A stretch of 64,000 bases of DNA from Candidatus Cloacimonadales bacterium (GCA_963678315.1 OY782781.1:1536001-1600000), one strand, 5' to 3'; shown: positions 1-45,434, numbered from the stretch's first letter. Numbers and translations: made by a program. The notes: generated by a model not told the origin, from the letters alone.

Positions 1-1419
1 CCAGATTACTGGTACAATACCTATAACATCCCAATCCCTAAATCAGGTGCTAAACTTGTAACCACTGGGAACGCTCGGCTGCTAGCCGGCTCTTCAATTC
101 CTCTCACTGGGAACGCTGGCATCCTTGCCGGCTCTTCAAACACTTTACCAGGAGGCACGTCAAATGACGTTCCCTTTCTACCTTCAGGAATAGTATTTTC
201 TCAAAGCTATCTCAACAAAAGCAACAAAAAAGTCGCAAAAATAAACGAGAAATATCTCTCTAAACTGGACACCTTAGACAAAGCTAAAGATGCTTCTTTT
301 CCAGGTGATCTATATTATTACTTCGGGAATGAGCTTTCCAAGCTGCTTCTAGCATCTTACTCCCAACAAAAAGTTCAGACCTATCGCAAAACCTCCAACA
401 GAGAAGGCCTAGCCCCTGTGCTGGCATCAGATTCTTTCGATATTGACTGGAATCTCACAGACGTCAAAGCTCTCCATGCTTTCAGACAACAGGCCTTCCA
501 AGTAGCTGGAGTTAATTGTGAAAACCTTAGACAGATGATAAAAGACCAAGCAGAAAAAGCCATTACTGAAGGTATTACATTTGCTGAATTTAGAGAAAAC
601 CTCAAGCTGAATGGATTCGAAGCGGATAATCCTTATCATCTCAAGACCAACTTCGAAACAGCCATCAATGGTGCTAAATCTGCAGCCAAATGGCAAGACA
701 TCCAGGAGTTAGAAGACATCTTTCCATATCTCAGGTATTTAACTATGAATGACGATGCTGTGCGAGAAGAACACAAAGCTTGGCATGGCTTAGTCTTACC
801 AGTAAATGATCTCTTCTGGAATGAAAGCTATCCACCTAATGGTTACGGTTGTAGATGTGATGTTGAACAAATCACAGAGGATGAAGCCAAAGAATCAAAG
901 CGTTTCGGAGATAAACCAGATCCAGAAACTAAAACCGATAATCACTTCAAAGGCAATCCAGGTAAAGACAATTCAATCTGGGGAAACTGGCTGAAAGAGC
1001 AGTCTTTAAAATCAACCGATCCTAGCGAGCTAAAGCTCAAAGACTGGTCAACCGTCAAAGGAACTAAAAAAGAGCCTGAAAAGCTTGTTTTTGCTAAAAC
1101 AGACGAGGCTAAAGACTATTTCAACGATAACATTGCTGGCTTAAATATAGATGTATGCAAATACCCTACTAATATCCCTGATTCACTCTTCAATAATATC
1201 AAAAGCAAACATCAAGATAAAATGTCTTTCATCAAACCAACTCTTGAGTCTCCTACAGAAGTCTGGACTGACTCCAACAACCACACCAACTACCTCAAGA
1301 AATACCCTTCAGGAACTTCTAAAATTGTTGTTAACATTGCAGGTGATGTTATAGAATTTGATATACCAGGAGAGAGTAAAATTGATATACTAAGAAAAGG
1401 GGATTGTGTGAAGAAGTAA
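1..1419 (+). CDS. Portal (gp29/DUF935-like C-terminus)-MuF (gp30/SPP1 gp7) head morphogenesis ORF with C-terminal PBECR2-like nuclease-fold domain; 5'-truncated by window
   Basis: Frame +1 is open from base 1 (PDYWYNTYNIPIPK..., gp29 C-term-like) into the 418 ORF; MuF motifs YLRYLTMNDDAVREEH..WHG and YPPNGYGCRC; C-terminal TLESPTEVW..YLKKY..LRKG. Confidence 0.8.
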   Translation, partial: PDYWYNTYNIPIPKSGAKLVTTGNARLLAGSSIPLTGNAGILAGSSNTLPGGTSNDVPFLPSGIVFSQSYLNKSNKKVAKINEKYLSKLDTLDKAKDASFPGDLYYYFGNELSKLLLASYSQQKVQTYRKTSNREGLAPVLASDSFDIDWNLTDVKALHAFRQQAFQVAGVNCENLRQMIKDQAEKAITEGITFAEFRENLKLNGFEADNPYHLKTNFETAINGAKSAAKWQDIQELEDIFPYLRYLTMNDDAVREEHKAWHGLVLPVNDLFWNESYPPNGYGCRCDVEQITEDEAKESKRFGDKPDPETKTDNHFKGNPGKDNSIWGNWLKEQSLKSTDPSELKLKDWSTVKGTKKEPEKLVFAKTDEAKDYFNDNIAGLNIDVCKYPTNIPDSLFNNIKSKHQDKMSFIKPTLESPTEVWTDSNNHTNYLKKYPSGTSKIVVNIAGDVIEFDIPGESKIDILRKGDCVKK

Positions 1420-1422
1420 AAA

Positions 1423-1449
1423 AAGAGAGAAGATTTGCTTCTCTCTTAT
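1423..1449. terminator. Probable bidirectional intrinsic terminator
   Basis: aagagagaag-attt-gcttctctctt hairpin with A-run, between convergent genes. Confidence 0.6.
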
Positions 1450-1453
1450 CTAC

Positions 1454-2272
1454 TTATTTTCTACTAGATAATTTATGATAAAGTTCTAATATATCATTAA
1501 TTATAGCTATGTTTTTTTGATTACAATTTTTGGTTTTATTGATAATGTCAAAGAATTTTAATTGATAGTCAGTTTCCTGAATTGATTCAATATCACTGAT
1601 ATTTTTCATTGTCAACATTCCTTTTAAAGACTCTTTAATACCAATTAACTCTGATTTATAGTATCTACTCGAGTTCTCCTTATTTAATTTAACGCTTGTT
1701 TCAAGTGAATTTACCCACATTACCAGAGCAACTAGATAGTCTTTTTTTGTTTCAAAACTTAAACCTAAAGTTGAATATATCATATTAATTTCTATAAGTG
1801 TTTTATCATCATGCAGTTTTCTTAATTTATTAGCAGTCTCAAAATCCTTTGTTAATTTAGATATCTCCTCATCAGTTGTATCTTTTATCTCTTTAGGTAA
1901 CTTCCAGCCAACATACCAAGTGATAAACACAGTTAGAAAAACCCCAAAAATAGTAACAAACAAAGTATAAAACATATTAGTCTTTGCCAATTCATTAGAG
2001 AATATTGCTCTTTGTTCATCTAAATCATACTGTTTTAGAAGTAACAAATCAAGTTTAGCTCTTAGGGTATCATTCTCAGCAATTAGCACATCTACTTTTT
2101 CTCTAGTGCAGTAATCATCATAATTAATGTCTCTACTTTCTGTTACAGCAACATTTGTGTAATACTCATTTTCAGGATAAAATGTTCTTTTCCCAAGCAG
2201 AAAGAGCCCTACAATTATTAGCAATAGCACAACTAATGATAGCCCCCCAATCCAACTAGTAAGATTCTTCAC
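1454..2272 (-). CDS. Moron membrane protein (N-terminal TM, coiled coil, second TM, helical C-domain)
   Basis: 272 aa ORF, GTG start with GGAGG RBS, two hydrophobic segments; similar to 2495..3433 around the second TM. Confidence 0.75.
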   Translation of the reverse strand: MKNLTSWIGGLSLVVLLLIIVGLFLLGKRTFYPENEYYTNVAVTESRDINYDDYCTREKVDVLIAENDTLRAKLDLLLLKQYDLDEQRAIFSNELAKTNMFYTLFVTIFGVFLTVFITWYVGWKLPKEIKDTTDEEISKLTKDFETANKLRKLHDDKTLIEINMIYSTLGLSFETKKDYLVALVMWVNSLETSVKLNKENSSRYYKSELIGIKESLKGMLTMKNISDIESIQETDYQLKFFDIINKTKNCNQKNIAIINDILELYHKLSSRK

Positions 2273-2364
2273 ATATACCTCCTCAAATATTATGCTTCAT
2301 TAACATCATTGATATTTATATTGTCAATGCATTTTATATATCATTCCCTGAATAACATTAAAAA

Positions 2365-2433
2365 ATAGAATTTAATATAGCAATGAAATAGTATATGTGA
2401 TACACTAAGAAAAGGGGATTGTTTTAAAAGTAA
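2365..2433 (+). repeat. Degenerate second copy of the MuF gene 3' end (1351-1419)
   Basis: atagaattt(g/a)atata..ca ... gata(t/c)actaagaaaaggggattg...aagtaa shared. Confidence 0.8.
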
Positions 2434-2494
2434 TTTACTGGGAGTCAGTGCTGGTATCAATAAAGGGAGATGTGTGCTTTTCCCTTTTTATAAG

Positions 2495-3433
2495 TTAATC
2501 CCCAATTAGTCTTTGGATAATTCCTTTCTTCTTTTTCTTCTGTTTAATATGTTCATCTAATTCAACACTTCTTAGTTTCATATCTATTTGATCCCATAGT
2601 TTGATATTATTAGTTACAAGCTCTTTAAAACTATCTAATCCTTCGATTGTAGAAGACTTAATGTGATAGAGAAGATTTTTATAGTATGCTACTTCGTATT
2701 TATTTATTTCTAGTTCAATATTCCTACTCGTTAATAAGTCATCAGTTAAGTTTTCTATTCTTTTAATTAGACTCATCAAATTACTTTTTTCGTAATCAGA
2801 TATTTCTATATCTGTAAGATAACTAACCAAGGATGATAATTGAGAAATCACAATCAGCAACTCTGTTTTTTTTGACCCATATTTGTCAGTCATTTCATAA
2901 TAAAATTCATCAAAATGTTCATAGAAACTTGCTAACTGTAGCCATATAGTTTTTACTTCTTTTTGGTACATATCTCCTAAATCATCGATTTTAATTTGAA
3001 AATCATTTTTTGTGTTCACTATTTGCTTTATTGTGAATTTCTTAATCTCTTCGTTATGTTTGTTTACTTCATCTTTCATTTTATCTGGTAGTCTTAAACC
3101 AATAAACCATGTAAAAAAAATAGTTAGTACTGCTGATAAAACACCTGTTATCCACCAGAAAACAGACAAATATCTATCAAAATCATCTTTCAAATCATCA
3201 TATTCAATCTTATATAAATCCCTTTCAGTAGAAGATAGTACCTTTTGGGATTCAAGATATTTAATTCTTTTATCCTGCTGCTTAATGATAGATTGTAACT
3301 TATTTATTTCTTCAATATTACAAGCTTCAAGCTGCTTAAATCGCTCTTCAATATAAGTAATCTGTTTATCCGGTTCTAAGCCAAACAAACCACTAAACAC
3401 TAATATGAGAAAAACAACTATTTTAATTTTCAT
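2495..3433 (-). CDS. Moron membrane protein (signal/TM, coiled coil, TM, helical domain)
   Basis: ORF 2495..3463; ATG at 3433 with GAGG RBS; TM WWITGVLSAVLTIFFTWFIGLRLP. Confidence 0.75.
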   Translation of the reverse strand: MKIKIVVFLILVFSGLFGLEPDKQITYIEERFKQLEACNIEEINKLQSIIKQQDKRIKYLESQKVLSSTERDLYKIEYDDLKDDFDRYLSVFWWITGVLSAVLTIFFTWFIGLRLPDKMKDEVNKHNEEIKKFTIKQIVNTKNDFQIKIDDLGDMYQKEVKTIWLQLASFYEHFDEFYYEMTDKYGSKKTELLIVISQLSSLVSYLTDIEISDYEKSNLMSLIKRIENLTDDLLTSRNIELEINKYEVAYYKNLLYHIKSSTIEGLDSFKELVTNNIKLWDQIDMKLRSVELDEHIKQKKKKKGIIQRLIGD

Positions 3434-3558
3434 AAATAACCTCTTTAAATCTTTTCTAATCAAAATTTATCAAAATGAAAGATAGCAAAAATCAAACAAG
3501 ATCTTTGGATCCCTTTTCACATGTTTAAAAAAATGTTAAAGGCATAAACACCTTTAAT

Positions 3559-4464
3559 CTATAATCTGTTCAATGTCATAGAATCAAAACCGTTTATTAA
3601 TTTTTCTCTTAATCTAATTAGTTTTTCTTTATGTTCTTGTGTTAATATACCTTCTCCCTCAGAAAGTATGAATTTAATTTTCTCATTTAATTCTAACAAT
3701 TCTAAAGTTGTAGCATCAAAATCTTTAGTCATTTCAAAATATATACCATCTATTAAGATCATAAAGTCATTTAGAATCTCACTAACCTCAGGATATATTT
3801 GAACAATATTTATAATAGGACGGTAGCTGTTTATTAGCAATTTAAGAGAATGTTTGAATCTTCGATTATTTAATTCGTTTTTTATTAGTGTAAAATTGCT
3901 GTGCATAATAAGTTGAGTTTGATAAAGTATGGTTTTTTTATTTTGATCTGATTTCTTATCAAAATTTTCATTCAATAGATTTTTATAGCTTTCAACTAAT
4001 TCATTTGATCTCCTTTCAATTTTCTTGTGTTCTCTTGTAACATAATATAACAATATTGTAATAACTATAGCAAAAATTCCTACTATCCAACTTAGTAAAT
4101 TAGACCACAATGTTCTATACTCAATAAATCTAAAATGCAAATTGTTTAAGTTACAGTGTAAAGAATCTAATTTAGAAATTGTATCTATTTGTTTATTTAA
4201 CTTAGAGTTATTTTTGTGATAAAGACTATCAAGTTCGACAACATAATTTAGTAGTATTTCATCTAGATTGTTTACTAATATTGAGTCTGTTTCAGAAGAG
4301 TTGATAAAAATTCTTTGAGACCTTAGATCATTTATTCCTTCTTTCAAAATATTTTGCTCAGAAGTTTTTGAAAAAGTATTGAAAAAAACAATAAACATCA
4401 GAGTAATATAGACTATGTTTGTAATCGTTTCAATAACAGATAATTTAGATGACTTAGGCTTCAT
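3559..4464 (-). CDS. Moron membrane protein with two TM segments
   Basis: ORF with hydrophobic N-terminal segment and WIVGIFAIVITILLYYV; overlaps the stop of the upstream ORF. Confidence 0.7.
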   Translation of the reverse strand: MKPKSSKLSVIETITNIVYITLMFIVFFNTFSKTSEQNILKEGINDLRSQRIFINSSETDSILVNNLDEILLNYVVELDSLYHKNNSKLNKQIDTISKLDSLHCNLNNLHFRFIEYRTLWSNLLSWIVGIFAIVITILLYYVTREHKKIERRSNELVESYKNLLNENFDKKSDQNKKTILYQTQLIMHSNFTLIKNELNNRRFKHSLKLLINSYRPIINIVQIYPEVSEILNDFMILIDGIYFEMTKDFDATTLELLELNEKIKFILSEGEGILTQEHKEKLIRLREKLINGFDSMTLNRL

Positions 4465-5047
4465 ATATTTCCCTTGCAAACTGTAAATATTTTACTAATT
4501 TAATGATTTCTTTTAGTGTTACAGAATATGATAACTGTCCATAAATCTTTCTTTTCAATACTTCATAAATAATAGACATTTTTGATGATTTATATGAAAT
4601 ATAGTAAGCTACATATATTTCTTCAGAGCAGTTTTTAGAAATTACTATATACATTCCTATCATTGTCTTAGCAAGTTCTTCAGATAGGATTCCCTTTCGA
4701 GTTAGCCTTTTGATATATTTGGAGATATATACTATTTCTGTATAAAAATTTTTATACTCACGATAAGCCTTCTTATTTAAAACTCTTTCTAGAAATGCTA
4801 TAGCAATAGAATATTGATGAAAATCTTTGGTGTTAATGGCTGACACCCTAAAATCTGCAATGTAATCCTTAATTTTTGACTCTTGTGTTTTAATACTATC
4901 TGAAAAAAATTCTTTTCTATAAAACCTTTTTTGTTTATAATAAATCCATATTTTAACAAAAGATACTATTAAGAATAAAACATATACAATTATCATTACT
5001 TCTAATGACAAAGATTGTTTTAATGCTTCTACATATTTCTCTAACAT
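4454..5047 (-). CDS. Hypothetical protein with N-terminal TM helix
   Basis: 197 aa ORF, AAGGA RBS, TM VMIIVYVLFLIVSFVKIWIYY. Confidence 0.65.
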   Translation of the reverse strand: MLEKYVEALKQSLSLEVMIIVYVLFLIVSFVKIWIYYKQKRFYRKEFFSDSIKTQESKIKDYIADFRVSAINTKDFHQYSIAIAFLERVLNKKAYREYKNFYTEIVYISKYIKRLTRKGILSEELAKTMIGMYIVISKNCSEEIYVAYYISYKSSKMSIIYEVLKRKIYGQLSYSVTLKEIIKLVKYLQFAREIYEA

Positions 5048-5139
5048 CTATTATCCTTATCTGAAAATCACATATTATTTATTTTTATCTTTTTCTTGAT
5101 ACAAGTATTAATTTATGTCAAGTTTTCTTCTCTTCTTGT

Positions 5140-5329
5140 ATTTCATAGTCAGAGATTAAATCTTCTCGTGATTATCATCCCCTTAGTTTAGTTCCATTCA
5201 CCTACGACCTGCATTGCTACCTTTAATTTTCTTCTTTAAAATATCATACAAGTAGCTACTTACTTTTGACATATCACTGTTTTCAATATTAAAAGCTCTC
5301 AACTTAACTTGTTTATATTTTTTAGATAT
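5140..5329 (-). pseudogene. Decayed 5' fragment of a former moron gene
   Basis: AAGGAG RBS, then ATA where ATG is expected, reading (I)SKKYKQVKLRAFNIENSDMSK...NAGRR*MELN*GDDNHE with in-frame stops. Confidence 0.45.
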
Positions 5330-5445
5330 CTTTTCTCCTTTTCCCCTTGTTTATATTATAAATATTTATATCAAATTTTGTTGGTCAAGCTTTTTTTATT
5401 ATCTCGTGCTTACCATGGTCCCATTCTCAATAATCAATTATGCAC

Positions 5446-5658
5446 TTATCCGTGGCTTCCTCTTATCTCCTAATTAAATAAGCCACAAACATCCTCTTAA
5501 CAATCGGATGCTTTAGTCTCTGGGCATAAGCCTCATTCTTAAATATCTTCAACTGATTAAAGAAGGCAATCCAATCTTCTTCAGTGTAGTTTTCCAGGAT
5601 CTCTTTCTCTTTAGCTTTAAATTCTTCATTTTTCTTTATCTCTTCAGGAGACAGCTCT
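5446..5658 (-). repeat. ~200 bp diverged duplicate of the 3' end of the 6298..6945 gene
   Basis: ELSPEEIKKNEEFKAKEKE...MFVAYLIRR near-identical in ORFs 5463..5693 and 6298..6945; about 8 substitutions in the coding part. Confidence 0.92.
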
Positions 5659-5839
5659 ATTTCATTAAATAGTTTGTGTGATGATTCTCTCAAAGTTGTC
5701 TGATATTACATTCTTGTAAATAATCTAATTAATTGCATTGTGAAATGGTTGAAAAAAAACTAGACATCCTTTTATGTATACTTTCTTATGTATTTAACTA
5801 ATATAATCTTATATTAAATCTAAGAAAGGAGGTAAGCTC

Positions 5840-5995
5840 ATGGATAAGTGGGAAATCTACAAAGATAACAAGAATGAGTGGCGTTGGAGAAGAACTTCTT
5901 CTAATGGTCGTATCGTTGGTGCATCGTCTCAAGGTTATACAAATAAATCAGATTGTATCAGCAATGCTCAAAGACATGGATATACAGGCAACTAA
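5840..5995 (+). CDS. YegP/DUF1508-family small protein (51 aa; absent from ORF track)
   Basis: AAGGAGG RBS; MDKWEIYKDNKNEWRWRRTSSNGRIVGASSQGYTNKSDCISNAQRHGYTGN* fits the DUF1508 pattern. Confidence 0.85.
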   Translation: MDKWEIYKDNKNEWRWRRTSSNGRIVGASSQGYTNKSDCISNAQRHGYTGN

Positions 5996-6023
5996 TAGTT
6001 AGCTACCTGTATAAGTGATTAAC

Positions 6024-6063
6024 GCTCCAGTTTTATGTGACATCCAAAACTGGAGCTTTTTTA
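6024..6063 (+). terminator. Intrinsic terminator after DUF1508 gene
   Basis: gctccagtttt-N11-aaaactggagc followed by T-run. Confidence 0.75.
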
Positions 6064-6117
6064 TTATTTGATAAATGTCAAACAACTGTCAATTATTTTT
6101 TTTCTTATCCTCAATCC

Positions 6118-6151
6118 CCTCTTGCATAAAATCATCAATTAATGCAGGAGG
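6118..6151. repeat. Dispersed palindromic REP-like element (copy in prophage)
   Basis: cctcttgcat...atgcaggagg; related copies at 24126-24173 and 45400-45434. Confidence 0.7.
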
Positions 6152-6167
6152 TTATTCAGCATCCCCT

Positions 6168-6309
6168 TTCGTGTTCTTAGTGTTTTTCGTGGTTCAATTC
6201 TTATTGGTGAAGATTCGTGCCATTTGTGGCTATCCTTTCTTCTTCGTGTAATTAGTGCAATTCGTGGATAGTCTCTTTTTATCTGCCTTTATCCGTGCTA
6301 TCCGTGGCT
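6168..6309. repeat. Block A of 9-bp-period (WTYGTG)x3-GG repeat units
   Basis: Four ~27-31 bp units spaced ~36-39 bp; 6198-6309 closely matches 7005-7119. Confidence 0.85.
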
Positions 6310-6945
6310 TTCTTCCTCTCTCCTAATTAAATAAGCTACAAACATCCTTTTAACAATCGGATGGTTTAGCCTCTGAGCATAAGCCTCATTCTTAAATATC
6401 TTCAGCTGATTAAAGAAGGCAATCCAATCTTCTTCAGTGTAGTTTTCTAGGATCTCTTTCTCTTTAGCTTTAAATTCTTCATTCTTCTTTATCTCTTCAG
6501 GAGACAGCTCTGGCTCTTTATAAGATGTATATCTCTGCTTCTCTTTACGTTTTCTGCTATTATATTCCTGCAAATACCCCTCAAATTTAGTCCCAAACAG
6601 AGTTTTAGGCCTAAGATACCTATGTTGATCTGTTGTCAGCCACTGAGCCGATTTTACATCAATAACCTGTTTAAATTCATCAACATTAAATCCATCATTA
6701 AGTCTGGCTCTGATGAGTGCTTTCGTATCGGAGGTGGAAGCTCTATATTCTTTACCGGTTACATGGTTCAAGTAGCCAATTATCTCAAGACATTTACTCT
6801 CAAAATCCTCTTTCGGACTCACCTTCTGTGCTTTTCCATACTTCTTTAACAACCTAAGCAAGAACTGCCTTTGCTTTTGCTCTAGCAGTTCTTTACCTAT
6901 CAAGTCTTTAGCTTCTAAATAAAGCTCTCTATTATCTTTCTTCAT
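6298..6945 (-). CDS. Conserved phage C-terminal domain (Phg_2220_C) protein, replication-organiser-like
   Basis: IIGYLNHVTGKEYR..IRARLNDGF..FKQVIDVK..W..YLRPKTLFGTKFEGYLQE. Confidence 0.85.
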   Translation of the reverse strand: MKKDNRELYLEAKDLIGKELLEQKQRQFLLRLLKKYGKAQKVSPKEDFESKCLEIIGYLNHVTGKEYRASTSDTKALIRARLNDGFNVDEFKQVIDVKSAQWLTTDQHRYLRPKTLFGTKFEGYLQEYNSRKRKEKQRYTSYKEPELSPEEIKKNEEFKAKEKEILENYTEEDWIAFFNQLKIFKNEAYAQRLNHPIVKRMFVAYLIRREEESHG

Positions 6946-6960
6946 TCTCCATTATGCCTT

Positions 6961-7119
6961 TATCCGTGTTTATCTGTGCTATCCTTAGCTCTTTTTCTGC
7001 ATTCTTCTTATTAGTGTAGATTCGTGCCATTTGTGGCTATCCTTCCTTCTTCTTGGTGTAATTTGTGTAATTCGTGGATAGTCTCTTCTTATCTGCCTTT
7101 ATCCGTGCTATCTGTGGCT
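6961..7119. repeat. Block B of 9-bp-period repeat units
   Basis: Four units; direct repeat of block A, first unit matches 8315-8344. Confidence 0.85.
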
Positions 7120-7131
7120 AAATCGTCACAA

Positions 7132-7518
7132 CTAAGAAACGCTTTCATAGTAAATAGCTCTTACATGCCAGTAATTCAACAAATACTTCTCGGCTACAAT
7201 GTTTATAGCACATTTAACACTATATCCTGAACCTCTTAGTTTTCTTATTTCTTTCTTGATATACTTATTGCGTTGCAATAGCCTATTCTTACTAGCTCCA
7301 AAATTCTCAACTCTCACTCCCAACTGCTTTATCTTACGATTAGGATAAATCTTATTATGAACAGTAATCCAAGCATTCGACATCTTAACCAAAGATCTTA
7401 ACAACTTCCTATTCTCGATTTGCTCTTCTAAGAAGGCTTTTCGTAAGGCACAATCAGCTTTAATAGTATAATTACACTTTGATGCTATCTTACATTTATT
7501 CTTTAATATACAATCCAT
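7132..7518 (-). CDS. Mor/C-like transcription activator (putative)
   Basis: C-terminal RNKYIKKE..GYSV...VAEKYLLNYWHVRAIY resembles the Mor-family HTH; position at end of early operon. Confidence 0.55.
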   Translation of the reverse strand: MDCILKNKCKIASKCNYTIKADCALRKAFLEEQIENRKLLRSLVKMSNAWITVHNKIYPNRKIKQLGVRVENFGASKNRLLQRNKYIKKEIRKLRGSGYSVKCAINIVAEKYLLNYWHVRAIYYESVS

Positions 7519-7592
7519 TTTTCCTCACTAATTCCCCTCCCCAGGAGGAGTGCCATCCTAAGATGGCAGGGTGTGTCATTAACTCCTAACTC

Positions 7593-8213
7593 CTAAAGGC
7601 TTGCATAATTTACGTTAATCTTCTTCCAATCGATATATACTTTCACACCTTTGCCACGGTCTTCAGATATCTCTTCACGCTTATATACTTCGGTATAGGC
7701 TCTTTTATCTATCACTTTCATATTAGAAGTTATCAGATGAACTCCTTTTTGATATTCCTGGTCCTCAAAATCATAAGAACACAGTTTTTGTAGTTGTGAT
7801 TTTGATATTGAACCAGAAGATTTTACACTAAGAACATCTTTGAGAATAGTCTTGATTTTTCTGTTTAGATTAGGTTGAAGGTTTTCAACCCAATTAGCTA
7901 TCATTTGAATACCAGAAGAAACATTAGTATCAATTGCTACAATCTCAGCAAAACGTGTTTCAACTTTGATTTGCTCATCAAAGCTATAATCACTTGCAAA
8001 ACCATTCCAAACTTTAAGTCCTGATGCTTTAGCTTTACTATTCAAATAATTCTCAGTCAGCTTTCTCTCTTTAGCTTTTGCCTTCTCCATTTGTTCAGAG
8101 ATAGACTCTCTAATAGCCATTATTTCAGTTACATAATCATGTGCTTCTAATACTTCTTTCTTCAATAAATCTGCTCTAATCTTACCATCTTTCCCATTTA
8201 AATATCTTGCCAT
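7593..8213 (-). CDS. DUF3164-family Mu-like prophage protein
   Basis: MARYLNGKDG.., GFASDYSFDEQIKVE, KRAYTEVYKR...INVNYASL; GGAGG RBS before ATG 8213. Confidence 0.75.
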   Translation of the reverse strand: MARYLNGKDGKIRADLLKKEVLEAHDYVTEIMAIRESISEQMEKAKAKERKLTENYLNSKAKASGLKVWNGFASDYSFDEQIKVETRFAEIVAIDTNVSSGIQMIANWVENLQPNLNRKIKTILKDVLSVKSSGSISKSQLQKLCSYDFEDQEYQKGVHLITSNMKVIDKRAYTEVYKREEISEDRGKGVKVYIDWKKINVNYASL

Positions 8214-8313
8214 TTTATATTGCCTCCATTTCTTATTTTGGGTTGCATTCACCGTGTCCGGCAACTGCCTGATCTTGAATGCGATTCTTCTTAAAATTCT
8301 TCATTATCTTCCT

Positions 8314-8802
8314 TTATCCGTGTTTATCTGTGCCATCCGTGGCTATTCTCTCTTCTTTCGTGTCATTAGTGTCATTAGTGTAATTAGTGGATAAATACTT
8401 CCTCAACATCACTATAACTCCACTCTTCTGCCTGCTATCAAGTGCATTCCAATGTACTATCCCATAGCGTTTTCCTATGAACTTCCTGAATCTATCATTA
8501 CTCCATCCAAGCTCTCTTAACATGCTCCAGACAAAGTCTCCCTGCTTATCAAACTGACCAATCCCATACTTAGCTCGGTAATCCTGCATACTGGGAACGC
8601 TGGCCTCCGTGCCGGCATCAATTATGCTAAGTACCTCTTGCAATCCTCTAATACTAAGCTTCCTCAATGAATCACCATATCCCCAGCTAGCCAGATACTG
8701 ATGAAACTCCTCACTAGACCAACCTTTCTCACGCTTTACCTTTATCATGATTGTCTGTCTCAATGATTTAGCATATTGCTCTTGTTTAGCTGTCATTGCC
8801 AT
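8314..8802 (-). CDS. GemA/gp16 (DUF1018)-like regulatory protein
   Basis: GWSSEEFHQYL..GDSLRKLS...Q..VWSMLRELGW...FIGKRYGI..LD..Q.SGVIVML; Mu early-region position. Confidence 0.7.
   Translation of the reverse strand: MAMTAKQEQYAKSLRQTIMIKVKREKGWSSEEFHQYLASWGYGDSLRKLSIRGLQEVLSIIDAGTEASVPSMQDYRAKYGIGQFDKQGDFVWSMLRELGWSNDRFRKFIGKRYGIVHWNALDSRQKSGVIVMLRKYLSTNYTNDTNDTKEERIATDGTDKHG
8315..8392. repeat. Block C of 9-bp-period repeat units, translated as the GemA C-terminus
   Basis: Encodes STNYTNDTNDTKEERIATDGTDKHG*. Confidence 0.8.
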
Positions 8803-9256
8803 AGTTAAACTCCTCTTCCGATATACCTAACTCGGCTAATCTTTTTCTCTTATATTCTTCAAATTTTGGGTACTCAGTCTTATTAGCCTTTCTCAGTTGT
8901 GTATAGTTTCCTCTCTCTTCCATCCTATAAACTGTCCGAGTACATACTCCTAGTTCATCAGCCTTAGCCTGTACTTCAGCCTCTCTAGAACCTTCCTTAT
9001 ACACTTTTTTTGTGTTTTTAGTGCTTTTTGTGGTTAGCTTCTTTTTCTTTATTGCCTTTGGATATACATACCTATATAGTTTAGGAGTACATCCATCTCC
9101 AGTTCTTACGATTTTCCCTTCTTTCAGATACTTTTTGAGTACTCTTTGGCAGCTGCTTTTAGCAACCCCAGTATCTTCAGTTACCTGAACTAAACTAAAT
9201 GGTCTTCGTATCTGAAATATGTAATTTCTTATTATTTGCTCATTATTGTTTATCAC
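8786..9256 (-). CDS. HTH DNA-binding protein
   Basis: Winged-helix-like N-terminus FSLVQVTEDTGVAKSSCQRVLKKY and second HTH ADELGVCTRTVYR. Confidence 0.65.
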   Translation of the reverse strand: MINNNEQIIRNYIFQIRRPFSLVQVTEDTGVAKSSCQRVLKKYLKEGKIVRTGDGCTPKLYRYVYPKAIKKKKLTTKSTKNTKKVYKEGSREAEVQAKADELGVCTRTVYRMEERGNYTQLRKANKTEYPKFEEYKRKRLAELGISEEEFNYGNDS

Positions 9257-9332
9257 TATTCACTCTCTTCTTACTTTCTTAGTGCAACCTACTAGTTGCT
9301 TTCCTACTATTCACTCTTAATTATGAACTAAA

Positions 9333-10082
9333 TTATAGTTCGTTAGCTGCCTCTATAATATCAGATACTTCTAGTTTAGTTATACCTTTTTGCTTGCCAA
9401 TATACTCAAATTCTTTGATTATGGATTCTAATTGGTGAAGAGATCCTTTAGCCTTGTTTGCCATCATGCCATAAACATCTTTAGAAGCTGCAACTTCCAT
9501 TGATGAAACGGCTACTCCTAGCATATCAGCTAGATTTGGTACTTCAAATTGACAGAAGTTAGAACATCTATTGAAAAAGTGTGCGTTATACTTTTCTAAT
9601 CGTGCTTTTGTATCTTCTTCACCAATCATCATAATTTTTGCACCAGCAATATCTCTAAAATCTCTAATCAACTCAAGAACCTGCCACTTATGATGTTGTA
9701 TTGCTAAATTGACTTCATCAAAAATGAATACATAAGGCTCTATATCTGGACTTTGATCCCTAAGAAAACTCAACTCTCCAAATAAATCTATACAAGCCTT
9801 TGCAAGTGTTGACGATGTTCCTTTAATAGTTGTCTCATTGCCTGTTAAAGCATAGTTCAAACTTCGATATACTTCAGCTAAAAAACTTCTAGCTGTATCC
9901 ATTGTTTCAATCCTGTAATATCCCCATCCAGGTTTAGCAAAACTCTTCTTAGCAAAATGACTCTTTCCTGTTCCTGGATAACCGTATACCAATATCAGGT
10001 CTGCTCCCTTCTTGGTTAGCATCTTCTTCATTACCTTCTGCAATCGCTTAACATTTGCAGTTTCAAATAATACACTTTTCAT
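9333..10082 (-). CDS. MuB-like AAA+ transposition ATPase
   Basis: Walker A GYPGTGKS, Walker B FIFDE, directly downstream of the transposase. Confidence 0.88.
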   Translation of the reverse strand: MKSVLFETANVKRLQKVMKKMLTKKGADLILVYGYPGTGKSHFAKKSFAKPGWGYYRIETMDTARSFLAEVYRSLNYALTGNETTIKGTSSTLAKACIDLFGELSFLRDQSPDIEPYVFIFDEVNLAIQHHKWQVLELIRDFRDIAGAKIMMIGEEDTKARLEKYNAHFFNRCSNFCQFEVPNLADMLGVAVSSMEVAASKDVYGMMANKAKGSLHQLESIIKEFEYIGKQKGITKLEVSDIIEAANEL

Positions 10083-10146
10083 CTTAACTCCTTCTCTTAA
10101 CTATTGTTTCTCATTTTTAAATTTTCATTTTTCATTGCTTAATTAT

Positions 10147-12924
10147 CTACCCAATCCCTAACTTCTTAAATGCTTCTTCATATTCTCTGTTTTTATCTTC
10201 ATCAACATGCGTTTGCTTGGCTGATTCTATCATTTCATCTGTTACAACTGGCTCTTTATTAGAAGTATCTTCAACTAGCTTATTAGCTTCTGTGATAGCA
10301 TTATCTAGAATTGAATCATCAATTGTAACATCTTCAGCTTGTGCATTAATTTTAGTTCTACTTGGTTTACCCTTATGTAGATGTAGCTTAGAAGCGTGTT
10401 TTTGGTTATTTTGAATCCTCTCCTGATCATCAATTGTGTTCTCAGAAGATTCAGCTAAAGCTCTGTGCATTCCCTTAACTGATCTTACACCATCTAAAGC
10501 ACTATAAACACTTCTTCCTATCTTCTCTCTGTGTTTAGTCTCAATATAAGATGCCATATCATCACCAACTTGAAGGGCAGGATAGACTATCTTAGCTTTC
10601 TCTTCAAAAACTTCTCCAAACTCAGATGCTATAGTAACCTCTGTTATATCTCTTTCATCATAGAAATATTGAACCTGTCTATTCTGTAGAGCCATAAACA
10701 TAGGATGTGAGTAGTATATACCATTAACAAAAATCTCTCCTCGATTAACTTTAGCCATTGATGGGTAAGGAAACTTCATTATCATATCTAACTTCTCTTT
10801 ACTGGGAACGCTGGCATCCTTGCCGGCAAGCTCTTCTGCATAAGCTTCTAATGGAGACATACTCTCACCTTTGCCATTAGTTAAAACTGATCTTTTTCGG
10901 TTGTTCCAAATCTCGATAAACTGCTTTAATAGCTCTTCATATTGTTCCCAAGTTGGGATATACTTACCATATTTCTTGATTAACTTCTTATTAGTTAATT
11001 TAAGAACTTCAGGTCTCTTTTCTATTTTGTTACCTATCCATACAGGAAAGGCTTTCTCAAATTGACTTACACAGAATCCCCAAAATGGCTCTATCATCTT
11101 ACTTTCAGGGTTACCAGGTATCGTGAATGAATAACTTATCCCTAGATTTTTATATAAACCATTGTCTCCTCTAGCTATCATCTCAAGAGCCTTCTTTTTT
11201 GATGCAGTATTTCTTTTCTTACCTGCATAAAAGTGTGGAGTGTGATTAACATTCTTATAGCCAGATCCATTATCAACTCTAATCTGTGCTGGAACTCCAA
11301 AATGCTCAATCCCATCTCTAAGCGAAGTCCTAACTACATTTTGATTCTCAGCTATACATAATGCATGGCCTGTGATAACACCAGTTGCTATATCATACCA
11401 AGCTATCAGCTGTGGCCTCACTAAAAATCTTAGTGTAGGCTTGTGAGCATAAAAAGGTGAATAAATCAAGTTATTCATTGGATGACCATCACTCTCCCAG
11501 ATATCTCCAGGCATTGCATTATTAATCCTATGAACATGTGGTCTAATCGAATCCTTGTAAGCTTTCTTACCTTTAGCTCTAGCAACAGCCATAGCATCTT
11601 TTCTCGCCTCTGTGACAATATTTAACACCGTACGTGGTGATATTGGCATCTCTTGACCTACACAGGTAAACTCTTCTTCAATCAGTCTATATATCTCAGT
11701 TGATTTGATATCCCTGAAATCTACAGCTAACTTCTTAATCTTACTTTCAAGAGAACTAGAAACAACTTTCTTCCTTCCTGAAGATCCTTTCCTGTGCTCT
11801 AACAAACTAATTGGGTATTTAGTATTACCAGAATCTCTTAAAGCCTTTTCCCACTTCTTAATTGTCTTAATTGATATAGTTACTACATCAAGCTGTTTCA
11901 TAACATTAGAAAGTATTTCACGATTGTTAAGCTTTATCTCAAAATCTCTACCTGCTTTAGTTAATGATATTTTGTTAGCTTTAGCATAATCTCTAAACTT
12001 CAAGTACTCATCAACTATTGCCTTCTTATTCCAAGCTCTATTTTTCTCTTCACTTGTGTGTATCTCAAATTCTTGTTGTTCCTTAAGTAAAACTACACTC
12101 AAAGAGTTACTACTCTTCATGATCTCTGCTTGCCACTTCATCTGAACATCTTGAGTAAATCCATCAACCTTGATATAAGTCTTAAACTTGCTAACCTTGT
12201 CTGGCATGGTTACTGCAAATAACTCTTGTGAAGAAATCTTATTGTATATAGTTCTTCTTGAATATCCTGAAAGCCCAACTGCTCGATCTATCGGAATCCA
12301 CTTCAAAGAATTTTTCAGTTCCTTCTCATCAATCCACTCAGGAGTGTCCACTTTAAGAATGTCCACTTTAAGAATGTCCACTTTAGAAGTGTCCAGTTTA
12401 GCAATGTCCAGTTTATGAGATTGTTTTTCAGAATCAGAAGTGTCCAGTTTAGATAAATTTTCTTTTCTAGTTTCGTTAGATTTTGTAAATTGGACACCCT
12501 TTTTTCCAATGTCCAGTTTAGAATTATCTTTTTTAGCAATGTCCAATTTAGCTAAAGCACTATTTTTTAGCACTTTTCCTACTTTTTGGACATTACATTT
12601 AACGCTTTTTAATGTACTTTGCACAGCCGGCTGTGCAAAACCATGTCCACTTTGATGGCTTTTCTCATTTTCTGGGACAAAAAAATTAGGTTCATGAACT
12701 AAAGTGTCCAGTTTAGAAATCTCCTCTTTTGAAGAAATATTTCTCTCTTGAGAACAGCTTCCCTCAGAAGTGTCCAATTTAGAATCATACCACACAAGTA
12801 TAGTAGGACGACCAGGACCTACCTGTTCTTCTTTAGTCTTCCAGATCCCTTTCTTAATCTGCCTTCGAATAGTCTTAACTGACTTATCTAACCTGTCAGC
12901 CACTTCTTTAATTCTTAACCACAT
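10147..12924 (-). CDS. MuA-like DDE transposase
   Basis: N-terminal HTHs, WESDGH, VDNGSGY, PGNPESKMIEPFW, C-terminal GEIFVNGIYYS...YFYDERD. Confidence 0.93.
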   Translation of the reverse strand: MWLRIKEVADRLDKSVKTIRRQIKKGIWKTKEEQVGPGRPTILVWYDSKLDTSEGSCSQERNISSKEEISKLDTLVHEPNFFVPENEKSHQSGHGFAQPAVQSTLKSVKCNVQKVGKVLKNSALAKLDIAKKDNSKLDIGKKGVQFTKSNETRKENLSKLDTSDSEKQSHKLDIAKLDTSKVDILKVDILKVDTPEWIDEKELKNSLKWIPIDRAVGLSGYSRRTIYNKISSQELFAVTMPDKVSKFKTYIKVDGFTQDVQMKWQAEIMKSSNSLSVVLLKEQQEFEIHTSEEKNRAWNKKAIVDEYLKFRDYAKANKISLTKAGRDFEIKLNNREILSNVMKQLDVVTISIKTIKKWEKALRDSGNTKYPISLLEHRKGSSGRKKVVSSSLESKIKKLAVDFRDIKSTEIYRLIEEEFTCVGQEMPISPRTVLNIVTEARKDAMAVARAKGKKAYKDSIRPHVHRINNAMPGDIWESDGHPMNNLIYSPFYAHKPTLRFLVRPQLIAWYDIATGVITGHALCIAENQNVVRTSLRDGIEHFGVPAQIRVDNGSGYKNVNHTPHFYAGKKRNTASKKKALEMIARGDNGLYKNLGISYSFTIPGNPESKMIEPFWGFCVSQFEKAFPVWIGNKIEKRPEVLKLTNKKLIKKYGKYIPTWEQYEELLKQFIEIWNNRKRSVLTNGKGESMSPLEAYAEELAGKDASVPSKEKLDMIMKFPYPSMAKVNRGEIFVNGIYYSHPMFMALQNRQVQYFYDERDITEVTIASEFGEVFEEKAKIVYPALQVGDDMASYIETKHREKIGRSVYSALDGVRSVKGMHRALAESSENTIDDQERIQNNQKHASKLHLHKGKPSRTKINAQAEDVTIDDSILDNAITEANKLVEDTSNKEPVVTDEMIESAKQTHVDEDKNREYEEAFKKLGIG
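12344..12780. repeat. Array of RTGTCCANTTT motifs inside the transposase gene
   Basis: 11 direct copies (five tandem at 15-bp period), one perfect and one imperfect inverted copy. Confidence 0.9.
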
Positions 12925-13127
12925 AACTTAACCTCTTCTCTTCTGGGTACGCAATCATCCTGGTTGCCTCTTAATGGGTTGCATTCATCTTGAATGCGAT
13001 TCATCTCTTCGATTCCCCATCTAACCACTAAACCCATTGAACAAAGTAAGCAGTCCATCTTACTTATTATAAGGAGGAGGATTTGCCGTGATAGACTGCT
13101 TACAAGTATCAAAACTATACAATTCAT
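12915..13127 (-). CDS. Small hypothetical early protein
   Basis: AAGGAG RBS, overlaps transposase start; 3' part consists of hairpin repeats. Confidence 0.4.
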   Translation of the reverse strand: MNCIVLILVSSLSRQILLLIISKMDCLLCSMGLVVRWGIEEMNRIQDECNPLRGNQDDCVPRREEVKLCG

Positions 13128-13206
13128 TCTTCCTTCTCCTTCTTATTTTTTTAGCTATTAAATAGCCATAAGAGCCTGCACCACGCATGATGCAGGTTAC
13201 TTGTGG

Positions 13207-13473
13207 TTATTTATGGTTAGAGGTTACGTGTCCTAGGTTAGCATTATTTCCTTGACCATTTAGAGATGTTATTTTATCAATTGCCTTACTTATGGATTGA
13301 GCTTGTGACTTCAGCTTGCCGGCATTAATAGTCACTTGCTCTTCTTTATGCTCCAAATCATAGTTTTTAGCTCTTAAAACGGCATTATCCTGTACCAATT
13401 CACTTATCTTTCCACTAGCTATCAAATACTCTACTATTACTACTACTGATAATATTACTACTGCTGTTGTCAT
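13207..13473 (-). CDS. Hypothetical early protein (TM plus coiled coil)
   Basis: GAGGAG RBS before ATG 13473 (MTTAVVILSVVVIV...). Confidence 0.55.
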   Translation of the reverse strand: MTTAVVILSVVVIVEYLIASGKISELVQDNAVLRAKNYDLEHKEEQVTINAGKLKSQAQSISKAIDKITSLNGQGNNANLGHVTSNHK

Positions 13474-13475
13474 AG

Positions 13476-13565
13476 CTATTCTCCTCTTATATATTCTGCT
13501 ATCAAATCTGCTATCCTGAACACTACCCATATTACTGGAAGCACTATTAAAACTGTTATCATCAT
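13476..13565 (-). CDS. 29 aa single-TM peptide (absent from ORF track)
   Basis: MMITVLIVLPVIWVVFRIADLIAEYIRGE*; ATGA overlap with the upstream stop, ends 2 nt before the next start. Confidence 0.5.
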   Translation of the reverse strand: MMITVLIVLPVIWVVFRIADLIAEYIRGE

Positions 13566-13834
13566 TCACCTGCCACCAGCTTGTATTGTTCTTCTGATAT
13601 TGGTTCAACAAAGCTAGGTACTTTCTGGTTGCTAGAACTAGGTTTAAACACTATTCTCCTGGTATTTACGTTATATGATAGTAATGAATTACCTTCAAAT
13701 GTCATTGATAAGACTGCACTAATACCTTTAGGAATTGCATTGAAATTTAAATTCCTAAGTATAACTTTAAAATCTGCTGTAAATTGAGACTTTACTTCAG
13801 GATCGATAATTTCATAATGTATTGTTTTATTCAT
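13562..13834 (-). CDS. Hypothetical early protein
   Basis: Tightly packed ORF in early operon. Confidence 0.55.
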   Translation of the reverse strand: MNKTIHYEIIDPEVKSQFTADFKVILRNLNFNAIPKGISAVLSMTFEGNSLLSYNVNTRRIVFKPSSSNQKVPSFVEPISEEQYKLVAGE

Positions 13835-14060
13835 TACTTTCATCCTCTGTTTTTAACTCATCTATCAAGTCTTCTAAGGAGTCATCATAGGAGTTGCCAC
13901 TACCGAGTAATTGATCTATTCCATACCTTCCGTATGATTCATAATTAGCTTCTGAATCTGTTCCTTTCACAGCCTCATCTATCAAATCTTTTGCTTCTTT
14001 TATTAATTCTTGTGCTTGTCTTATCAATTCAATTCTATCTGTATTACTTAATGAATTCAT
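13827..14060 (-). CDS. Hypothetical acidic early protein
   Basis: 77 aa ORF with GGAG RBS in early operon. Confidence 0.6.
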   Translation of the reverse strand: MNSLSNTDRIELIRQAQELIKEAKDLIDEAVKGTDSEANYESYGRYGIDQLLGSGNSYDDSLEDLIDELKTEDESNE

Positions 14061-14068
14061 TATTGCTC

Positions 14069-14344
14069 CTAATTACTTTTCTGTTTGTTCATTGCTGTTT
14101 GATTAAATTCAATTGCTTCTGTAGGTATTTTTCTAAATTCAGTTACCCAGTCTCCTAATAGATCCCAGATAACTCTTTCTATAGTCCTATTACTACGTTT
14201 CCTATTTACAATCTTAGTGATATAGCTTGTTGAATAATCACTATCTAACACCATGTTCACATGCTCAGTTAGTATCTCCTGAGTCATACAAAATGACGCT
14301 AAAGCTGATTTTATTTCTGCAGGTTTAAACTTCTGTTTTATCAT
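14069..14344 (-). CDS. Ner/Cro-like small regulator
   Basis: First gene divergent from the repressor; EIKSALASFCMTQEIL...STSYITKIVNRKRSNR HTH-like. Confidence 0.6.
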   Translation of the reverse strand: MIKQKFKPAEIKSALASFCMTQEILTEHVNMVLDSDYSTSYITKIVNRKRSNRTIERVIWDLLGDWVTEFRKIPTEAIEFNQTAMNKQKSN

Positions 14345-14372
14345 TGTAACTCACTCCTATAAATTTTTTTTC

Positions 14373-14468
14373 TTGACCGTTGTAACCTTTCCGGGTTAAT
14401 GTCCGATATGTGACAACATTGCTCCATTATGGAACAATGTCAAGAAATAATTACCGTATTGGAGCATT
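14373..14468. promoter_or_regulatory. Divergent promoter/operator region
   Basis: Near-perfect IR acattgctcca-tta-tggaacaatgt (14416-14440) overlapping a minus-strand TTGACA; second site with tggagca half-site at 14450-14466. Confidence 0.65.
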
Positions 14469-14473
14469 AAATA

Positions 14474-15205
14474 GTGAAAGAAATTGCTAATAGACTTCGT
14501 AAAGTACGACAGGAACTTGATTTAACTCAACAACAATTTTGTGATAAAATTGAAGTTTCTAGAGGTACTTTTTCTAGATATGAGAGTGGATTACGTTCAC
14601 TTCCAGATGAAGTTAAACAAAAGCTGCTCCAATTTGGAGTCAATCTGCATTGGCTTCTTACTGGTAATGGTCCAATGTTCTTAAATCAAGAATCTACTAA
14701 ACCCAAAACTAAAGTTGAAGCAAATGTTGATAGATTACAACATTATATTGATTTAGGGAAAGCCCAAGCTCATCAAGATATTAGCTTAAATTCAGAAGAT
14801 GTTAACTATAGAACTCTACCTATTACAGGAGAAATAGCAGCAGGAAACCCTATTGAAATAAGAGATGTAGATCTCCTGGGTAAGATATTAGTCTCTGCTG
14901 ATATTATTGATGATATAGCTAACTTCTACTGCTTCAGAGTAAATGGATGGAGCATGAGTCCAGAGGTTCAACACGGTGATGTTGTTATTATTAACAAGAT
15001 CTACGACTGGGAAGACCTGGACAACCGTATTGTAGCTGTCAGAATAGATGATGGAGTTACTCTCAAGGTCCTTAAACTGGATCATGACAATCAATGCTCC
15101 TGGCTTATGCCTATTAATGATGACTACAAACCTATTCTCTTAAATGAATTCAGCACCGTGGTGGTTCTCGGTGTTATGGAATTCTTAATAAGATCGTATA
15201 AATAG
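14474..15205 (+). CDS. Prophage repressor, XRE HTH plus S24 (LexA/CI-type) peptidase
   Basis: LRKVRQELDLTQQQFC..SRYESG; GEIAAG cleavage site; GWSMSP Ser; TLK Lys. Confidence 0.92.
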   Translation: MKEIANRLRKVRQELDLTQQQFCDKIEVSRGTFSRYESGLRSLPDEVKQKLLQFGVNLHWLLTGNGPMFLNQESTKPKTKVEANVDRLQHYIDLGKAQAHQDISLNSEDVNYRTLPITGEIAAGNPIEIRDVDLLGKILVSADIIDDIANFYCFRVNGWSMSPEVQHGDVVIINKIYDWEDLDNRIVAVRIDDGVTLKVLKLDHDNQCSWLMPINDDYKPILLNEFSTVVVLGVMEFLIRSYK

Positions 15206-15260
15206 CATACTATAAAAGTGTTTCCAAATGGTAACACTTATCTATCATAAAGGAGGAATT

Positions 15261-15446
15261 ATGAAGACTTTGACACGAATGAATTTAATGTTATCTATTG
15301 TACTTTATTCACTTTTTGCAGTAGGTGGAGTAAGAAACAACAAATGGCTAGAGGAAACAGATAATAGCGAGATTAGACTTACGGTATCATGCTCTTATGC
15401 CATAAATACCCAGATTGATTTCTTAATTCGTAAAGTACAGTTATAA
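15261..15446 (+). CDS. Small hypothetical signal/TM protein or remnant
   Basis: AAGGAGG RBS, hydrophobic N-terminus. Confidence 0.4.
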   Translation: MKTLTRMNLMLSIVLYSLFAVGGVRNNKWLEETDNSEIRLTVSCSYAINTQIDFLIRKVQL

Positions 15447-15457
15447 TTGGTTGTACA

Positions 15458-24023: not shown

Positions 24024-24125
24024 AACTACTTTCTAAGAGATTAAGAAAAGCATATTAGAAGCAGAATTTCTATGATTAAACTCAAGAAGCAGTGTTGAGG
24101 TTTTCTTGAATGTTTATCTAATTTA

Positions 24126-24173
24126 TTACTAGCCTCCTGCATTAAATCCACTATTAATGCAGGTGGCTAGTAA
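24126..24173. repeat. Dispersed palindromic REP-like element
   Basis: ttactagcctcctgcatta...taatgcaggtggctagtaa. Confidence 0.7.
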
Positions 24174-45257: not shown

Positions 45258-45399
45258 TTTCAGCTCCTTAAAGATTTATGTTAGTATATGAAATTAGATT
45301 TAATACTTCAAATAAATTATATATTTACAAGTGCTATATCTGTCAATAAAAACCATAAACACAATGAATCCTGACTATATCTTCATGCATTCATTAATG

Positions 45400-45434
45400 G
45401 CCTCCTGCATTAAATCTACTTTCTATGCAGGTGG
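45400..45434. repeat. Dispersed palindromic REP-like element
   Basis: gcctcctgcattaaatc...tatgcaggtgg. Confidence 0.7.

Follow-up and report, generated by a model that had tools for sequence, protein, structure and literature searches.

A REP-type hairpin family with a CTGGGA..GC tag lies within Mu-like prophage genes of a Candidatus Cloacimonadales bacterium

How does the same short hairpin come to lie within three unrelated phage genes? The question is raised by a 64,000-nt stretch of a Candidatus Cloacimonadales bacterium (GCA_963678315.1 OY782781.1:1536001-1600000; this whole stretch is called the window below), which begins with genes of a Mu-like prophage. A 27-bp hairpin recurs there in the genes for a portal-MuF fusion protein, a GemA-like protein, and a MuA-type transposase. 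The initial annotation described it as similar to repetitive extragenic palindromic sequences (REPs), inserted in frame and adding 9-aa peptides. We report that the 27-mers are copies of a REP-type family with a new tag, and we propose, at a probability of roughly two in three (about 0.68), that REP units were written into the prophage genes, most likely by a REP-associated tyrosine transposase (RAYT) of the host or by events triggered by it.

Four copies are present in the window, numbered here from the left (Table 1). The exact 27-mer occurs as copies 2 and 4, and copy 3 is a variant with two mismatches; at least three matches of the 27-mer were found in none of 100 dinucleotide shuffles. 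The first 11 bases of the 27-mer, CTGGGAACGCT, additionally recover copy 1, giving four matches against 0.24 expected, a number reached in 0 of 100 shuffles. A covariance model of tag and hairpin, run over the 64 kb on both strands with filters off, returned exactly these four copies (E 1.4e-11 to 3.4e-8), all on the + strand. This structure-aware scan found no fifth copy in the 64 kb, the next match being noise (E 2.1, 7.6 bits). The window is AT-rich (GC 0.27-0.37 per 2 kb), and 27-mers with at least 18 G+C occur at only eight places in it, four of which are the copies. GC content of the element is 0.67-0.74, compared to 0.35-0.40 in its host genes; its composition is thus foreign to them, which counts in favor of acquisition. 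The annotated hairpin is confirmed at four + strand sites inside three phage genes. The extragenic location implied by the name REP does not hold here, where four of four copies are inside intact Mu-like prophage open reading frames (ORFs).

REPs are short (about 20-40 nt), GC-rich imperfect palindromes that form a stem-loop with a conserved single-stranded tag at the hairpin foot, and the 27-mers have all of these features. In this family, a 7-bp hairpin follows a 5' tag (CTGGGA..GC) that does not vary. Among 27 copies from the window and three phyla (four lineages), the tag is invariant at C2-A7, G10, and C11 (columns 2-7, 10, and 11), and its consensus reads ACTGGGA[A/G/T][C/T]GC. In the hairpin, 94.3% of cells are paired, compared to 17-63% when the 3' partner is slid, and two stem pairs show compensatory changes (GC/CG in four sequences, AU/GC in five). 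The covariation score was reached by 0 of 500 shuffles in a test on 15 sequences, restricted to 27-nt forms to hold the columns in register. Folding energies as DNA are modest (-4.0 to -6.0 kcal/mol). Copy 2 forms a 7-bp stem with a 4-nt loop (-6.0 kcal/mol, a stability matched by 1 of 200 shuffles), copy 1 forms a 5-bp stem plus two pairs (-5.7 kcal/mol), and the fold of copy 3 is no better than shuffles (79 of 200).

The family extends well outside this genome. When 185,579 species genomes were scanned once for a pattern of the tag, nine unconstrained positions, and the final six bases, 37 loci matched, where about 17 chance matches are expected (18 fixed bases, 596 Gb, both strands, uniform composition). 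At a model score of at least 35 bits there were 23 matches in 11 loci; the other 26 loci were rejected as chance matches (at most 30.4 bits, no hairpin). The 11 genuine loci belong to six assemblies of three phyla, Cloacimonadota, Hydrogenedentota, and Verrucomicrobiota (Table 1). Some Hydrogenedentota loci are the same site in both metagenome-assembled genomes (MAGs), L013 and L036 being alike over their flanks, so sites are fewer than loci. The identical 27-mer is found in independent public assemblies reaching into other phyla (L016, L021, L022, L028, and L037). Copies in the Cloacimonadales locus L016 and in Hydrogenedentota lie between Pfam-supported genes, and the Hydrogenedentota copies form inverted pairs about 85 nt apart, like REP doublets. 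Locus L016, chosen by the motif, holds 25 tag matches in 12,027 bp.

Several details of these loci may be recorded. Positions 649-851 of L016, next to a RAYT-like gene, consist of seven head-to-tail 29-nt units that abut perfectly, and two hairpin subtypes are mixed within the same intergenic regions of this locus. Among forms one base shorter, this locus has a single copy (6001-6027) of the exact 27-nt form seen in the window. At L010, L013, L021, L028, L036, and L037 (MAG GC 0.55-0.62), inverted doublets with a conserved spacer, resembling the REP doublets known as REPINs, have as one arm the 27-mer, either identical or with one mismatch; the Hydrogenedentota 27-mer is identical to that of the AT-rich window despite the distance between phyla.

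REPs are linked to RAYTs, which are HUH/Y1 enzymes. In L016, ORF 1003-1755 (-) has family copies on both sides. Its product matches Pfam Y1_Tnp (37.5 bits, cut-off 23), and among NCBIfam models it matches that for REP-associated tyrosine transposase best (2.6e-15), with IS200 at 24.5 bits. It contains an HVH motif and a Tyr-rich C-terminal block, which may be the catalytic region. In L004 (Opitutaceae), a homologue of this protein (38% identity, E 1e-40) is encoded at 5378-5896, again with copies on both sides (4910-4936, 5161-5187, and 6001-6027). Both a related Cloacimonadales genome and an Opitutaceae genome thus have a putative RAYT gene flanked by the repeats, which bears out the REP-like nature proposed by the initial annotation. 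The same annotation suggested a RAYT gene flanked by the motif, and further copies in the genome, as checks; a putative RAYT and family copies occur in L016 and L004, and neither a RAYT nor a fifth copy lies inside the 64-kb window.

Comparison with relatives shows what changed in the host proteins. The closest MuA relative found, P0001 (916 aa; 97% identical over residues 430-925), lacks the element. The interval from EAY to EKLD is 10 residues long in P0001-P0004 and P0006 and 14 in the window, a net gain of 4 aa. The "PS" encoded at the element end aligns with "PS" of P0001, P0002, and P0004 and with "PA" of P0003, and the three residues preceding the element also differ from the closest homologue. 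Downstream of copy 4, the GCTCTTC string (Table 1) resembles the tail after REP units (TCTTCT in L016, and also in ORF 1-1419), and these nine bases are possibly part of an imported patch. The closest GemA relative found, P0030 (82% identical), likewise lacks the element. The GemA linker has 14 residues in P0030, 13 in three other homologues, and 13 in the window, a net loss of 1 aa. Nine of the 13 residues in the window are element-encoded, the following four differ too, and the Gly contributed by the element falls on GemA's invariant Gly64. Because of the net changes of +4 and -1 aa, a patch that extends beyond the 27-mer, and edge residues that match homologues, the events look like replacement of local sequence, or insertion plus deletion. 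The initial annotation's claim of insertions that add 9-aa peptides is thus not supported in that form, although the closest relatives lack the element.

The peptides occupy tolerant positions. In an AlphaFold2 model of MuA (17 sequences, mean pLDDT, the predicted local distance difference test, 67), residues 700-708 are exactly the coil between helices 691-699 and 709-717, and pLDDT of the 10-residue blocks at the element is 81 and 75. In the predicted GemA model (8 sequences, mean pLDDT 71), residues 65-81 are below 50. With alignments this shallow and models of moderate quality, the predictions support "loop" and nothing further. Among 11 fusion homologues, both the length and the sequence of the portal-MuF junction are hypervariable. 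For ORF 1-1419, a near-length search found no relative above 40% identity (its length band was too short for the full fusion), and the best match of a representative search had 42% identity, so that no element-free close relative was obtained for this gene. Closest homologues without the peptides, and sites in variable loops and linkers, argue that the element-encoded residues are not conserved core of MuA or GemA and would represent a recent gain, which we count in favor of acquisition; the opposite pattern, named in the initial annotation as what would contradict it, was absent.

Reading frame and strand add less. Every copy begins on a codon boundary of an intact ORF. In the 5'-open ORF 1-1419, TGNARLLAG forms residues 22-30 and TGNAGILAG residues 36-44, both read sense; these two copies sit in tandem 42-nt units (64-105 and 106-147) that are identical at 32 of 42 bases and have a TCTTCAA tail in common. 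The canonical 27-mer is nine codons long and free of stops in all six frames, so its insertion keeps the frame of any gene open, and for this reason in-frame residence alone is weak evidence. The same codon phase is used at all three sites and gives a Gly/Ala/Ser/Pro-rich reading, not the Trp/Cys/Arg-rich one; this could reflect selection (chance about 1 in 9). The shared + strand across oppositely transcribed genes speaks against a role in mRNA and would fit a process acting on a DNA strand, with the agreement not statistically significant.

The reading we prefer is that a host RAYT wrote these REP units, directly or through the events it set off. TnpA-REP of Escherichia coli is described as binding the hairpin plus its 5' tag, both being needed, as cutting single-stranded DNA at CT dinucleotides, and as able to transfer strands in vitro (PMC3479197). 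A tag followed by a short GC hairpin would be the kind of single-stranded substrate that a RAYT binds and cuts. The host RAYT, or the repair or replication it triggers, would act on phage DNA in single-stranded form, either in the prophage or while it replicates. Of these events, selection would then retain only those that are a multiple of three long and free of stops, in loops and linkers that tolerate small Gly/Ala/Ser/Pro-rich peptides.

A number of results weigh against this reading. A tblastn search of the 64-kb window with P0190 found no RAYT at E up to 10, and the covariance model found no family copies in the 48 kb of flanking chromosome. The RAYT-like protein of L016 scores 56.5 bits against the NCBIfam RAYT model, below the curated cut-off of 80, and a PDB sequence search with it gave weak matches to chains of ISDra2-type Y1 transposases (E 0.29). 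REPs are grouped into GTAG- and CGTC-tagged super-families in PMC3733652, and the present tag is neither. Same-strand orientation concerns three independent sites only (chance about 0.25, not significant), and in L016 both orientations stand side by side. The copies differ from clean insertions of 9 aa (+4 aa in MuA, -1 aa in GemA, changed patch longer than 27 nt), and insertion of the IS200/IS605 type would not by itself predict such replacement. The comparison with relatives was made at the protein level.

Replacement is what gives the strongest rival its life. While phage DNA was replicated or repaired, a nascent strand may have jumped by microhomology to a REP of the chromosome, copied about 27-36 nt from it, and returned, overwriting part of the gene; the donor would be the same REP family, and the writer would be the replication or repair machinery instead of a RAYT. 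Net length differences of +4 and -1 aa in place of +9 keep this explanation alive. Edge residues shared with homologues ("PS" after I/V in MuA of P0001-P0004, and Gly64 of GemA) fit microhomology at the junctions, and the changed MuA patch running into GCTCTTC recalls the tail after REP units in L016 and ORF 1-1419. However, the comparison is at the protein level and the microhomology therefore putative, insertion with compensating deletion under a length constraint looks identical (the MuA loop is 10 residues and the GemA linker 13-14), and no donor REP lies within 64 kb. We regard templated patching as rather unlikely.

A motif selected for a phage function, such as a gyrase- or IHF (integration host factor)-type site aiding Mu-type transposition, or an RNA or DNA structure affecting expression, is improbable. 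For E. coli, binding of IHF and Pol I to REPs and cleavage by gyrase at REPs have been reported (PMC3479197), four copies occur in about 11 kb of phage DNA and none in 48 kb of flanking chromosome, and all copies share strand and codon phase. What makes the explanation weak is that the element is missing from the closest MuA and GemA relatives and is usually found between genes and linked to a RAYT, in non-phage contexts across three phyla. One gene reads the element in sense and two in antisense, which makes a common role in mRNA unlikely. In a phage collection (50,697 records), a 32-nt query around copy 4 gave only five partial chance matches (E about 3), and megablast of window positions 1-16000 gave none; in a plasmid collection the same query gave partial matches only (best E 0.7). 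An assembly or sequencing artefact, or an ancestral peptide motif common to the three proteins, is hardly credible: the sole oddity in its favor is an identical 27-mer in unrelated genes, and that 27-mer recurs in the independent assemblies listed above, the reading frames continue into well-aligned sequence on either side, and the peptides are not conserved among homologues, which already contradicts common ancestry.

Other classes of element were considered and rejected. The Rfam gathering scan and the tRNA/tmRNA scan of the window gave no matches, and the 27-mer is thus neither a known RNA family nor an att site derived from a tRNA. No duplication is common to the flanks of the four copies, and their sole inverted repeat is the internal stem, unlike a miniature inverted-repeat transposable element or a classical insertion sequence (IS). 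Units in L016 abut with a 29-nt period and without spacers, and the window has two units 42 nt apart plus two singletons, unlike a CRISPR array or solitary repeat. Differences among copies are not adenine-specific, and a diversity-generating retroelement was rejected on anatomy.

Among known systems, the family is closest to the REPs of E. coli and Pseudomonas, with their composite bacterial interspersed mosaic elements (BIMEs) and REPINs, and the associated RAYT ("REPtrons"). Shared features are a GC-rich imperfect palindrome with a single-stranded 5' tag, intergenic clusters, tandem arrays (L016), inverted doublets (Hydrogenedentota), and a single HUH/Y1 gene flanked by repeats. It differs in its tag, which is CTGGGA..GC instead of GTAG, and in its hosts, Cloacimonadota, Hydrogenedentota, and Verrucomicrobiota. 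The family shares with IS200/IS605 elements a Y1 HUH enzyme related to theirs, putative recognition of a hairpin plus guide on single-stranded DNA, and a lack of terminal inverted repeats and of target-site duplication; unlike those elements, each with a transposase of its own and with left and right ends that differ, the unit here is 27 nt and non-autonomous, with the enzyme encoded elsewhere.

Rickettsia palindromic elements (RPEs) of the RPE-1 type are much longer, about 100-150 bp. RPEs resemble the present copies as in-frame palindromic repeats in genes of an AT-rich genome, adding extra peptides to apparently functional proteins, and RPE-4 and RPE-6 are given as CGTC-tagged (PMC3733652); tag and length of the present element differ. 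The present copies also replace local sequence rather than merely add to it, and the RAYT link made here concerns the present family. Intragenic REPs are described in Opitutus terrae, Thauera, and Stenotrophomonas (Di Nocera et al. 2013, PMC3733652). Those, like the present copies, are wholly inside ORFs, add short peptides, sometimes occur twice per ORF, and are in genes thought functional; unlike the present copies, they are described there with GTAG or CGTC tags and in chromosomal genes, many of them for DNA repair. "Phage" does not occur in the main text of that paper. Of five short peptide strings from the element compared with its supplements, four were absent, and VPS had one unrelated match in an O. 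terrae GTAG-19 peptide. We found no paper on palindromic repeats in Cloacimonas, and a search for RAYT or REP with prophage or bacteriophage found no title or abstract reporting REPs inside phage genes. Intragenic REPs are thus already known, and what is new is a REP family with an undescribed tag and its location in phage genes, not a new kind of element.

The location of REP copies on a transposable prophage is notable. Spread of REPs in vivo has so far had no direct demonstration, and element-free relatives could yield the exact junctions of recent acquisition events. A 27-nt REP open in six frames can be absorbed as a loop peptide by a transposase, a GemA protein, and a portal-MuF linker, which widens the Rickettsia-type picture of selfish DNA in proteins to phage genes. 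A more speculative proposal, which we consider doubtful, is that REP units overwrite a few codons of a transposable phage, creating loop peptides in essential proteins, and that the phage carries REPs between cells. If so, the inheritance of REPs with chromosomes would not be strictly vertical, and sister prophages with and without the element would form a natural before/after pair revealing the chemistry of REP insertion in vivo.

Table 1. Element copies, host and neighboring genes in the window, and loci of the family in other genomes.
Feature	Location	Strand	Product, peptide, or position	Evidence
Copy 1, REP-type, variant hairpin	64..90	+	TGNARLLAG, portal-MuF linker	Covariance model 35.9 bits, E 3.4e-8
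Copy 2, REP-type, canonical 27-mer	106..132	+	TGNAGILAG	Covariance model 48.2 bits
Copy 3, REP-type, two loop differences	8590..8616	+	Antisense AGTEASVPS, GemA residues 63-71	42.5 bits
Copy 4, REP-type, identical to copy 2	10801..10827	+	Antisense AGKDASVPS, MuA residues 700-708	48.2 bits
Nine bases after copy 4	10828..10836	+	Coding EEL on - strand	Contain GCTCTTC string, differ from closest homologue
Portal-MuF-PBECR2 (nuclease-toxin type) fusion, 3' part	1..1419	+	5' end beyond window; hosts copies 1 and 2	Pfam Phage_Mu_F 1.3e-16, PBECR2 8.5e-6
GemA-like gene	8314..8802	-	Hosts copy 3	Pfam GemA 8.1e-7 and homologue alignment
MuB-like ATPase	9333-10082	-		
MuA-type transposase gene	10147..12924	-	Hosts copy 4	Pfam Mu-transpos_C, DDE_2, HTH_17; PHROG transposase 2.6e-64
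S24 repressor	14474-15205	+		
Cloacimonadales chromosome	L016			
Two Hydrogenedentota MAGs	L010, L021, L036; and L013, L022, L028, L037			
Three Verrucomicrobiota MAGs	L004 (Opitutaceae), L007, L019			

The prophage genes are listed in Table 1, and the remainder of the window is bacterial chromosome, with gyrB/gyrA, secD, dinB, and a protein with a type IX secretion system (T9SS) sorting tail. In fusion homologues of 800-870 aa, it is the C-terminal end of the Mu-type portal domain that aligns with the first residues of ORF 1-1419, and the ORF is therefore read as the 3' part of a portal-MuF-toxin fusion. Across 1-5047, the fusion ending in PBECR2 has the MuF polymorphic-toxin architecture and converges on four minus-strand ORFs (1454-5047), for which no Pfam or PHROG match was found. 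The early region and the late-gene fragment are in facing orientation, and because this arrangement differs from Mu gene order, two prophages or a rearrangement are possible.

Other repeats are present in the same region. In the N-terminal third of MuA, 15-nt tandem repeats at 12328-12730 (eight copies, family D2) encode KLD/KVD-type pentapeptides; the array is one unit (5 aa) shorter in P0001 and is therefore length-polymorphic. The prophage contains a 211-nt duplication (5457-5667 and 6310-6520, 93% identical), and a segment of about 110 nt occurs three times (6198-6309, 7005-7119, and 8272-8361) at or after the 3' ends of successive early genes, covering the GemA C-terminus. Another short repeat, about 46 nt long and containing an internal palindrome (6106-6151, 24121-24166, and 45389-45434; families D7, I2, and I5), has one inverted copy in the prophage and two in the flanking chromosome, and it may be a separate hairpin repeat or terminator family.

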